Part shown: positions 1-1,547 of the stretch, one piece after another
How the letters are laid out: the number at the start of each line of letters is the position of its first letter
Position numbering within the stretch: position 1 is the stretch's first letter
NCBI GenBank assembly: GCA_035533535.1
Contig: DATLTP010000199.1
Span: forward strand, 1-62,345
DNA: 62,345 nt
Origin: Bacillota bacterium
GTDB lineage: Bacteria; Bacillota; Sulfobacillia; RBS10-35; JAJYVM01
Reading direction: 5' to 3'
Made by a program: the position numbers and the translations under genes
Notes under the pieces: generated by a model
Databases searched by the model: none
The model's input: the letters and a program-made list of their open reading frames with translations, nothing else
Told to the model about the DNA's origin: nothing

Positions 1-1547
1 AGATCCCGTCCAAGCACCGGCAGCTTCTGCTCGCCGCTGGGCCAGGAACGGCTGCCCGCCAGGCGCTGGGCGTGGGGGTGGTCCGCCCAGACCGGTCGAA
101 TCTGATCCAACTGTGCGCGACCTGACGCGGTGACGGTCCACACGTCATGGCGAGTGACGATTGGCTTGCCACGCACGGGCGCGGAGACGGCCCCCCGCCG
201 GCGCCGGCTGACGCCGGCCTGGACTCCGTGGCTGAGCAGCAGGTACTGGAGGTGCGAGGCCAGCTCGCGCGAGACCGTGGTCCAGGTGATCCGCCCGCGC
301 GACAGCGTGCCGTCGCCCCTCGTGTACGCACGGAGGAACGCCGCCTGCAGCGCCGGTTCCACGTTGAAGACCAGGTCCGGGATGCGCTTTTCGTCCGCCC
401 CTCGGGCACCCCCATACAGGGCGCGAACCAGATGGTGCAGGACTCGATTGCGCAACGCCAGCTTGACGCACCTGCGGTCTTCGTAGCGGCGCGGCCGAAT
501 GCCGAAGGTCCGGACGATGGCCGCTTCGACCTCGTCGAGCATGGCGCCGTCCCCGGGCCCAAAGCTCAGGGAGATCCCGTCGCGTCGCGAGTTCGTTCCC
601 TCAGCGGTGTACCAGCCGAGAATCGTCATCAGGTCGGCGTTCACTGGAATCGTCCGCGGGATCGCCCGGTCGGTGTGCTTTTCGGGGGAAAGCCACCCGT
701 CCTCGGGTCGGCTCGCATCCTCGGGCCTCAGTTCGTGCAGGTCCAGCCACGGCTTGACCTGGTTCCGACCCGAGCCCCGGTACTGGGTGGCCCAGACGGT
801 CTCCAGCGACGACTGGCCGACGACGGCCTGCTGCAGGCACTCGTCCAGGGACAGGCCCAGCGCGGCGACGTAGGCGGAGAAGCGGCTCAGGGTCGGCCGG
901 CTCCGTCCCTTCTCCCACGCGTAGAAGGTGACCGGCTGGCGGATGCCGGCGGCCCGGCAGACGTCCTGTTGGGACAATCCCCGTGACCTGCGCGCCTCAG
1001 CCAGCCGCCGGCCCAGCTCCGTGGGGATGCTCACGCGAGGCTCGGTCCGCTCAAGCGGCTGGGCCATGCGCACCCGCTCGCGCTGGATCGCTTCCGCCAG
1101 CGGGCCCCGCACCCAGAGGCGGTCGGGGATGGTCCGGCTGGCCCCCACCAGCGCGCCCAGGACATCCAGGGCCACCACGCGGCGGCTCATCGCCGGCAGA
1201 GGCAGCGATCGCGGCGCCATGACCAGGTCGCCCACCGCGAGCTCGTCGGCGCGCTTGAGCATGGGCCGACCGTTCTCCCAGGTAAACACGCTGTGCCCGG
1301 CCGTGACCACGACCCGGCGTCCATATGCGGTGACGACTTCGAGTAGCGGCTCTTCCGCCCGGTGCCGGATCACGTTGCGAATCGCCTTGAAATCCACGGC
1401 CTGCGTTGCGAGGTCGAAGCAGAGTACCTCGAAGGTTCGGAAGTCGAGCTCGCCCGCCATGCACCGGTCGATGAACGGACCCACGCGGACGGCGAGCACG
1501 ACGCCGCGCGCGTCGCGGACGAAAGCGACCTCGTCCCCGTCGACGCT
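1..1547 (-). mobile_element. Large intein (Hint domain plus LAGLIDADG homing endonuclease) inserted in the GyrB TOPRIM motif; C-terminal splice junction is outside the window
   Basis: After ...YHKVVIM the frame does not continue with the universal TDADVDG. It reads [17 protein letters not shown] (block A-like, Ser1), then [15 protein letters not shown] (TxxH block B). LAGLIDADG-type motifs follow: [14 protein letters not shown] (~594..635) and [16 protein letters not shown] (~306..350). At least 515 aa are read with no return to GyrB sequence. Confidence 0.85.

Follow-up and report, generated by a model that had tools for sequence, protein, structure and literature searches.

In a Bacillota-like bacterium of high GC content, the chromosomal gyrB gene very probably carries an intact class-1 intein of 556 residues, with the reading frame maintained through both of its junctions. 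The gene lies at the left end of contig DATLTP010000199.1 (assembly GCA_035533535.1), of which we analysed the 62,345 nucleotides from position 1 to 62,345, in the following called the window. Between its Hint-N part and its LAGLIDADG endonuclease the intein possesses a helix-turn-helix (HTH) domain of the XRE/Cro type.

On the minus strand of the window, the reading frame that begins with a GTG codon at 3020..3018 stays open down to position 1 and comprises 1006 codons without a single stop, as an earlier note on this DNA, made from the sequence alone, had claimed. The note had also identified the product as GyrB up to the methionine codon at 1550..1548, and the protein models and the codons at the junction bear this out. 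The N-extein (1548..3020, minus strand; 491 codons from the GTG to this ATG) contains the ATPase domain and the transducer, followed by the initial part of TOPRIM. Matches to the NCBIfam gyrB models extend over precursor residues 2-496, and Pfam recognizes HATPase_c, DNA_gyraseB and, over the first two thirds of its length, Toprim. Since the fragment present in the window is truncated, it scores below the cut-off of the gyrB equivalog model TIGR01059 (734.9 versus 882.4). At the N-terminal junction the codons read ...aag gtc gtc atc ATG/AGC gtc gac ggg..., with ATG at 1550..1548 and AGC at 1547..1545, which corresponds to KVVIM/SVDG (a slash marks the junctions here and below). The insertion lies between Met491 and the threonine that precedes the first aspartate of the TOPRIM DxDxD motif. 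The earlier note was right in locating the intein at this motif but not in placing it inside, since it adjoins the motif.

The first 515 of the 556 intein residues occupy positions 1..1547 (minus strand, like all intein features given below), starting with the AGC codon of Ser1. Within these residues Pfam finds a weak Intein_splicing match (35.0 bits, just below the cut-off of 35.8), HTH_31/HTH_3 and LAGLIDADG_3, in this order. The Hint-N part (intein residues 1-115; 1203..1547) aligns to PI-PkoII (PDB 2cw7; query residues 34-124) and to TFIIB mini-inteins, and it includes block A with Ser1 (1545..1547) and block B with the sequence TAGH (T82..H85; 1293..1304). The endonuclease (intein residues about 296-500; 48..662) is recognized by LAGLIDADG_3 with 44.6 bits (cut-off 22.5) and by alignments to TliVMA and to PI-PkoII, the endonuclease domain of which matches query residues 298-444. 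Its two LAGLIDADG motifs, ...GWYTAEGT (594..635) and ...YTRGDGT (306..341), provide the catalytic residues E316 and D412, respectively. All the motifs that the earlier note had quoted for an intein, namely the block A serine, the TxxH of block B and the two LAGLIDADG motifs, are therefore present, and they are also conserved in the relatives. PI-PkoII is the closest solved structure by sequence (E = 1.2e-19), aligned over Hint-N and endonuclease, and 35 GyrB proteins that carry the same intein came up in a protein search (37-50% identity, E down to 1e-138). Because of these E-values, the intein match is not a matter of chance. Alignment to full inteins of 564-568 amino acids (aa) indicates that the copy in the window stops approximately 41 aa before its end; the last 41 intein residues, with blocks F and G, and a C-extein of 140 aa fall left of the window edge.

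This remaining part is found on the public metagenome contig Ga0307374_10022919 (7734 bp; L081), which was detected by an exact-match scan of metagenome contigs with a query of 41 nt from the first 45 nt of the window. L081 is 99.87% identical to positions 7140..1 of the window (9 mismatches, no gaps) and reaches 594 nt beyond the window edge. Its protein equals the 1006 residues of the window exactly, the two nucleotide differences inside gyrB being silent. Beyond the edge, the frame passes through block F and block G (GGLCCHN) and then encodes GyrB again for 140 residues up to the stop codon (...NVRFIDTIG), which is followed by a GC-rich hairpin. The intein reading of the earlier note, which had asked for blocks F and G and an in-frame C-extein in just this place, is thereby confirmed, and its prediction of how GyrB would resume was almost exact, except that the motif contains DADSDG instead of DADVDG.

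The complete precursor measures 1187 aa, with 491 residues in the N-extein, 556 in the intein and 140 in the C-extein. On this precursor the Intein_splicing model reaches 57.3 bits, now well above its cut-off, and DNA_gyraseB_C appears as well; the profile search for Hint and LAGLIDADG domains that had been recommended is thus positive for both. If residues 492-1047 are removed in silico, the resulting protein of 631 aa matches TIGR01059 with 942.9 bits, above the cut-off of 882.4, in one stretch over model positions 1-638 of 639. The same protein stays below both parE cut-offs (parE_Gpos: 783.6 versus 899.95). The residues expected for splicing are all present, i.e. Ser1, Thr82 and His85, block F, the penultimate His555, the terminal Asn556 and Thr+1.

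The TOPRIM motif itself reads TDADSDG at positions 7262-7282 of L081, just left of position 1 of the window. The other 71 intein-bearing genomes examined have TDADVDG, and the serine is shared only with the nearest relative, L001 (described below). This rare substitution falls within the metal-binding DxDxD motif and also within the presumed homing site.

Judged by the window alone, in which GyrB sequence never resumes, the gene could be an insertion-disrupted pseudogene, with an intact copy elsewhere supplying gyrase B, and the earlier note had named this alternative. It is contradicted by L081, where the C-extein is in frame and ends with a stop codon, and by the spliced product, which clears the gyrB equivalog cut-off. 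In addition, exteins and intein are under purifying selection, the gene takes the canonical position in the order dnaA-dnaN-recF-gyrB, and the same arrangement forms one uninterrupted frame in 72 other genomes. A second gyrB or a C-extein was not found within the 62-kb window, where the sole match was spurious (29% identity, E = 0.026). We consider it extremely improbable that this gyrB is a pseudogene.

The intein belongs to a family with a wide distribution. In a scan of 185,579 species genomes (one genome per species), relatives were encoded in 151. We fetched 80 of these genomes, and rough counts taken from the record titles assign 38 to Pseudomonadota (many of them Steroidobacteraceae, and including the isolate Thiorhodospira sibirica ATCC 700588), 33 to Chloroflexota, four to Bacillota, two to Fimbriimonadales and one each to Longimicrobiaceae, Nitrospiraceae and Halobacteriales. 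At 72 loci, one open frame spans the entire intein. All of the 35 database homologues spanning the junctions read IM/SVD at the first and N/(T or S)DADVDG at the second junction. A residue census of 73 full inteins, which are 556-582 aa long, revealed that Ser1, Thr82, His85 and Asn556 are conserved in every one of them, the penultimate histidine in 69 and the acidic pair of the LAGLIDADG motifs in 70, while threonine occupies position +1 in 72 of 72 cases. The HTH domain is present in all 73. The family is unusually uniform, being always of full length and having a nearly always intact endonuclease. No mini-intein derivative was detected among the 73 full-length members, with search patterns that favoured full-length forms.

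The nearest relative is L001, a metagenome-assembled genome labelled 'Clostridia bacterium', which possesses a complete gyrB of 1200 aa. Its intein is 81% and its N-extein 90.6% identical to those of the window; the present intein is at most 81% identical to that of any species-representative genome. The ratio of nonsynonymous to synonymous substitution rates (dN/dS) between the window strain and L001 amounts to 0.11 for the N-extein, 0.13 for the whole intein, 0.06 for Hint-N, 0.09 for the HTH domain, 0.16 for the endonuclease and 0.14 for the C-extein, figures that are approximate, since dS is 0.5-1.2 and thus near saturation. Purifying selection acts on all domains of the intein and on the exteins. 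From this selection, together with the complete set of catalytic residues, we infer that the precursor splices autocatalytically. A recent acquisition of the intein from a foreign source was also considered, and its base composition gives no sign of it: GC content and GC content at third codon positions (GC3) are 0.698 and 0.878 in the intein, near the values of 0.65-0.67 and 0.92-0.93 in the exteins.

The predicted structure of a homologue agrees with this domain architecture. An AlphaFold2 model of P0001, calculated from an alignment of 36 sequences, has a mean predicted local distance difference test (pLDDT) score of 83 and a predicted template modelling (pTM) score of 0.72, and most of the intein part exceeds a pLDDT of 85. 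In a Foldseek search against the PDB, the top ranks were all taken by inteins that contain a homing endonuclease (HEN), i.e. PI-TkoII (2cw7; E = 9.3e-28), TliVMA, PI-PfuI, PhoVMA and PI-SceI. Lower matches were gyrase TOPRIM fragments, which align to the extein stubs, and mini-inteins.

Several points weigh against the reading as an intact, splicing and mobile intein. The window itself lacks the final 41 residues of the intein as well as the C-extein, and for the completeness of the gene we rely on L081, which comes from another assembly and shows 9 differences in 7140 positions. The structural model depicts P0001, which is 47% identical, and not the window's own protein, and the near-saturated dS limits the precision of the selection estimates. 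A published splicing or DNA-cleavage assay for members of the family was not found. Moreover, the endonuclease of L001 has the exchange E316Q and an insertion of 13 aa after GKPIVTR, so decay of the endonuclease does occur in the lineage. In the L001 intein (positions 6001-7707 of the L001 sequence), the first acidic residue is replaced by glutamine (WFTAQGS) and the second one is glutamate (YTRGEGT), and this endonuclease looks degraded. The second acidic residue of the LAGLIDADG motifs is also lost in L034 and L059.

The state of the L001 endonuclease would suit the idea that the intein splices but has an inactive endonuclease or is immobile, so that it is a fixed passenger that is inherited vertically and kept only since the host would not survive its imprecise removal from an essential catalytic motif. 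It would also agree with this idea that intein identity follows extein identity (66 genomes, r = 0.87) and that, between phyla, the inteins are 41-48% identical versus 50-60% for the host gene, which fits a long vertical residence. Furthermore, no phage copy was found that could have served as a vector: a tblastn search of 50,697 phage records yielded nothing beyond remote LAGLIDADG similarities (21-23% identity) in unrelated inteins. However, the copy in the window has kept its two catalytic acidic residues, as have nearly all relatives, the dN/dS values of endonuclease and HTH domain are as low as those of the exteins, and mini-inteins are absent from the 73 members, albeit in a sample that favoured full-length forms. 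Horizontal transfer is also required by the patchy distribution of the family: just 151 of the 185,579 species have it, and these are dispersed among at least six bacterial phyla and include one Halobacteriales genome. An immobile passenger is therefore an unlikely description of the intein in the window.

For an intein that both splices and homes, the established chemistry of class-1 inteins and the LAGLIDADG homing model suggest the following course. The 1187-aa precursor would be translated, and its TOPRIM metal site could not form before splicing. Ser1 would undergo an N-O acyl shift, the hydroxyl group of Thr+1 would attack the resulting ester and form a branched intermediate, Asn556 would cyclise with the help of His555 and thereby release the intein, and an O-N shift would leave a normal GyrB of 631 aa (...KVVIM-TDADSDG...). 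Because the insertion is located one residue before the first aspartate of DxDxD, the unspliced precursor would be expected to have no activity, and this is commonly given as the reason why an imprecise loss of such inteins is impossible. The free intein, acting as a homing endonuclease, would cut an intein-less gyrB at a site of approximately 40 bp, CAYMGNATCATCATCATG/ACCGACGCCGACGTGGACGGC, and repair from the intein-bearing allele would copy the element into the cut one. Nearly all first and second codon positions of this reconstituted site are fixed across the 73 inteins; the target is constant because the encoded protein motif is invariant. A candidate cleavage target in intein-less gyrB genes would be CACAAGGTCGTCATCATGACGGATGCCGACTCGGACGGG, as would its variant with GTG (Val). 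The present case is a further instance of an intein that targets the invariant catalytic motif of a replication-linked enzyme. With serine at position 1 and threonine at +1 as nucleophiles, it has no catalytic cysteine, which could be of interest to intein engineers.

The conserved XRE/Cro-type HTH domain, which the earlier note had overlooked, comprises intein residues 177-236 (precursor residues 668-727; 840..1019) and thus follows Hint-N and precedes the first LAGLIDADG helix. It is recognized by HTH_31 with 40.0 bits (cut-off 27) and by HTH_3 with 31.5 bits (cut-off 23). In the P0001 model, the corresponding region (residues 220-282) consists of five short helices with block-mean pLDDT values of 87-95. 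Q204, T207, E212 and P218 are invariant in the family alignment, and Q204 and T207 form the start of the predicted recognition helix; their invariance fits the recognition of an invariant DNA target. We searched the HTH region against 1.84 billion representative proteins. Among the relatives that match in a single stretch with 43-56% identity, six were examined by Pfam and each turned out to be a GyrB or intein-bearing fragment, and a seventh one, with 37% identity, is a full GyrB precursor with HTH_3. Further matches are generic XRE and poly-HTH proteins with about 30-35% identity. Most likely, the HTH domain serves as an accessory DNA-binding module for the gyrB target.

Accessory domains (ACDs) of HEN inteins are structurally diverse and two of them are HTH-like; a capture of such domains from transcription factors has been proposed, and a domain of the 434 repressor, an XRE-type HTH, has been grafted as an artificial ACD (Beyer & Iwai 2022, PMC8966425). 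That the present HTH domain was captured from a transcription factor in the same manner, and aids the endonuclease in recognizing the gyrB homing site, is a tentative proposal that we regard as somewhat less probable than its being wrong. If true, the captured domain would parallel in nature what the 434-repressor graft achieved by engineering, and it would lend direct support to the hypothesis of an acquisition of accessory domains from transcription factors (PMC8966425). None of the solved HEN-intein structures described there has an HTH domain of this type and in this position. In the literature searched we found no description of an XRE-type HTH domain in an intein, which is an absence of evidence only; possibly, this kind of accessory domain is undescribed so far. 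A modular HTH that can be recognized by sequence and is located beside a LAGLIDADG nuclease could interest meganuclease engineers.

One could also imagine that the excised intein has been co-opted, with its HTH domain acting as a sequence-specific regulator, for instance of gyrB and gyrA or of the origin region, in addition to homing or instead of it. The HTH is indeed a bona fide domain of the transcription-factor type with two Pfam models above their cut-offs, it occurs in all 73 members with low dN/dS and with invariant Q204 and T207 in the predicted recognition helix, and each splicing event would set free one intein per GyrB. However, HTH-like accessory domains of HEN inteins have already been read as modules that bind target DNA (PMC8966425), and the invariant gyrB homing site explains the conservation of the recognition helix equally well. 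We therefore regard co-option as very improbable and a contribution of the HTH domain to target binding as the better explanation.

The gyrB gene is located in a canonical origin gene cluster with the order dnaA-dnaN-recF-RemA-like-gyrB, all on the minus strand: dnaA (6457..7824; Pfam Bac_DnaA), dnaN (5087..6205; DNA_pol3_beta), recF (3799..4872; SMC_N/RecF-type) and a gene for a RemA-like protein of the DUF370 type (3024..3410; Pfam RemA-like). As read from the sequence, the TAG stop codon of the latter (3026..3024) and a Shine-Dalgarno-like GGGAGG (3028..3033), 7 nt upstream of the GTG, immediately precede the start of gyrB. Around 6250-7750 the GC content goes down to 0.61-0.66 and the GC skew becomes positive. 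Farther away in the window lie genes for a penicillin amidase (43689-45869, plus strand) and an SLH-domain protein (57041-59716, minus strand), and the sole Rfam or ARAGORN matches in the 62 kb are three tRNA genes on the plus strand, namely Asp-GTC (25337-25413), Gly-CCC (27706-27779) and Thr-CGT (27826-27901).

The list of open reading frames (ORFs) that accompanied the window contains only antisense ORFs over the gyrB stretch (928..2250 and 2319..3848, both on the plus strand), as had been pointed out before. The supposed invisibility of the gene is, however, an artefact of the listing and not a matter of biology, since the list by its own description leaves out ORFs running off the source, and the gyrB frame runs off the window. 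Neither of the two antisense ORFs (440 and 509 aa) is recognized by Pfam, and most likely they are by-products of a GC3 near 0.9 (0.88-0.93 over the gyrB gene). Annotation driven by ORF length would wrongly favour them over gyrB.

The intein matters in practice, since gyrB is a standard phylogenetic marker and a drug target, and an intein of 556 aa leads gene callers and annotators to mislabel or split the gene. Among the relatives, some are labelled as GyrB, others as 'LAGLIDADG family homing endonuclease' or 'helix-turn-helix domain-containing protein', and still others are cut into two or three genes. Since the window ends within the intein and many database homologues are truncated, we considered that assemblies might tend to break inside the intein. 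This was rejected, as the truncated proteins on long contigs represent adjacent split gene calls in mid-contig, which speaks for frameshifts and against contig ends. Two examples are L082 and L083, contigs of 64 kb and 434 kb from two assemblies of the European Nucleotide Archive (ENA), in which gyrB has been called as two or three genes (L082: 1006-2511, 3001-4362 and 4720-5271; L083: 3001-5322 and 5301-6623). The split calls on these two contigs probably reflect frameshift errors or real decay. Such calls account for many 'partial' GyrB or 'LAGLIDADG endonuclease' entries in the databases. Before gyrB sequences are aligned, the intein must be taken out.

GyrB inteins have long been known, and the present case adds to a family that already exists in public databases. 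Novikova et al. 2016 listed 33 GyrB inteins in Actinobacteria, Chloroflexi, Cyanobacteria and Proteobacteria, Soucy et al. described a gyrB intein allele common to halobacteria and bacteria, and in a study on gyrases 61 intein-containing archaeal GyrB sequences were taken out of the data set. A published allele name for the IM/TDADVDG site was not found in the literature searched.

The GyrB intein of Synechocystis sp. PCC 6803 (Ssp GyrB) shares with the present one the TOPRIM domain of GyrB as host, the class-1 mechanism and the C-terminal HN. It is inserted at a different site, EGDSAGG/SAKQGR, 63 residues upstream, and belongs to an unrelated sequence family with Cys1, the C-intein sequence GVFVHN and Ser+1 (PMC2794532), whereas the present intein has Ser1 and Thr+1 and occupies the site IM/TDADxDG. 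In the gyrB of the window, the Ssp GyrB-type site GG/SAKQGR is uninterrupted. Both types can coexist in one gene, as in P0003 with two inteins and in L016 (Chloroflexi bacterium HGW-Chloroflexi-1) with three (VVDN/S, GG/S and IM/T). The gyrB of L016, a frame segment of 1987 aa, carries the first of these in the ATPase domain (EVVDN/SLTYD...IVCHN/SIDEAMAGY), an Ssp-GyrB-type mini-intein of 184 aa as the second (EGDSAGG/CFSGD...GIFVHN/SAKQGRDR) and an intein of the IM/SVDGDE type as the third (positions 6001-7695 of L016). A GG/SAKQGR intein was also seen in L005, L006, L021, L027, L029, L045 and L050.

GyrA inteins of the Mycobacterium xenopi/leprae type (NCBIfam NF038098) resemble the present intein in having a LAGLIDADG endonuclease and in residing in the partner subunit of gyrase. 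They differ by their first residue, which is cysteine, and by their site next to the catalytic tyrosine (...RY/C...HN/TEA), and their sequence resemblance to it is weak and confined to the endonuclease part (E = 6e-5). In L001, gyrA (8238-12014, plus strand; 1258 aa) lies directly downstream of gyrB and likewise contains an intein with a LAGLIDADG domain (...AAMRY/CVTGDTLV...GFINHN/TEARL), so that both gyrase subunits of this genome are intein-bearing. The gyrA of the window strain falls outside both the window and L081.

Among the structurally characterized inteins, PI-TkoII (PI-PkoII, 2cw7) is similar in its split Hint domain, its nested LAGLIDADG endonuclease and its extra domains, one of which has been described as HTH-like (PMC8966425). 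In both inteins, Hint-N is separated from the endonuclease by a long insert (residues 136-269 in 2cw7 versus 125-297 here). However, its host is an archaeal family-B polymerase, its insertion site is a different one, and the sequence identity is about 22%. The TliVMA intein (PDB 7qss) is associated with a HEN, too, and has an extra HTH-like DNA-binding module. In VMA inteins the ACD is situated between the endonuclease and Hint-C, while Hint-N and the endonuclease are linked by an unstructured loop of 28-32 residues, and PI-SceI has its ACD inserted into the Hint domain (PMC8966425). In contrast, the HTH of the present intein is located between Hint-N and the endonuclease and is recognizable by sequence as Pfam HTH_3/HTH_31. 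The current understanding is left unchanged by this gyrB intein, of which only the HTH domain is mildly notable.

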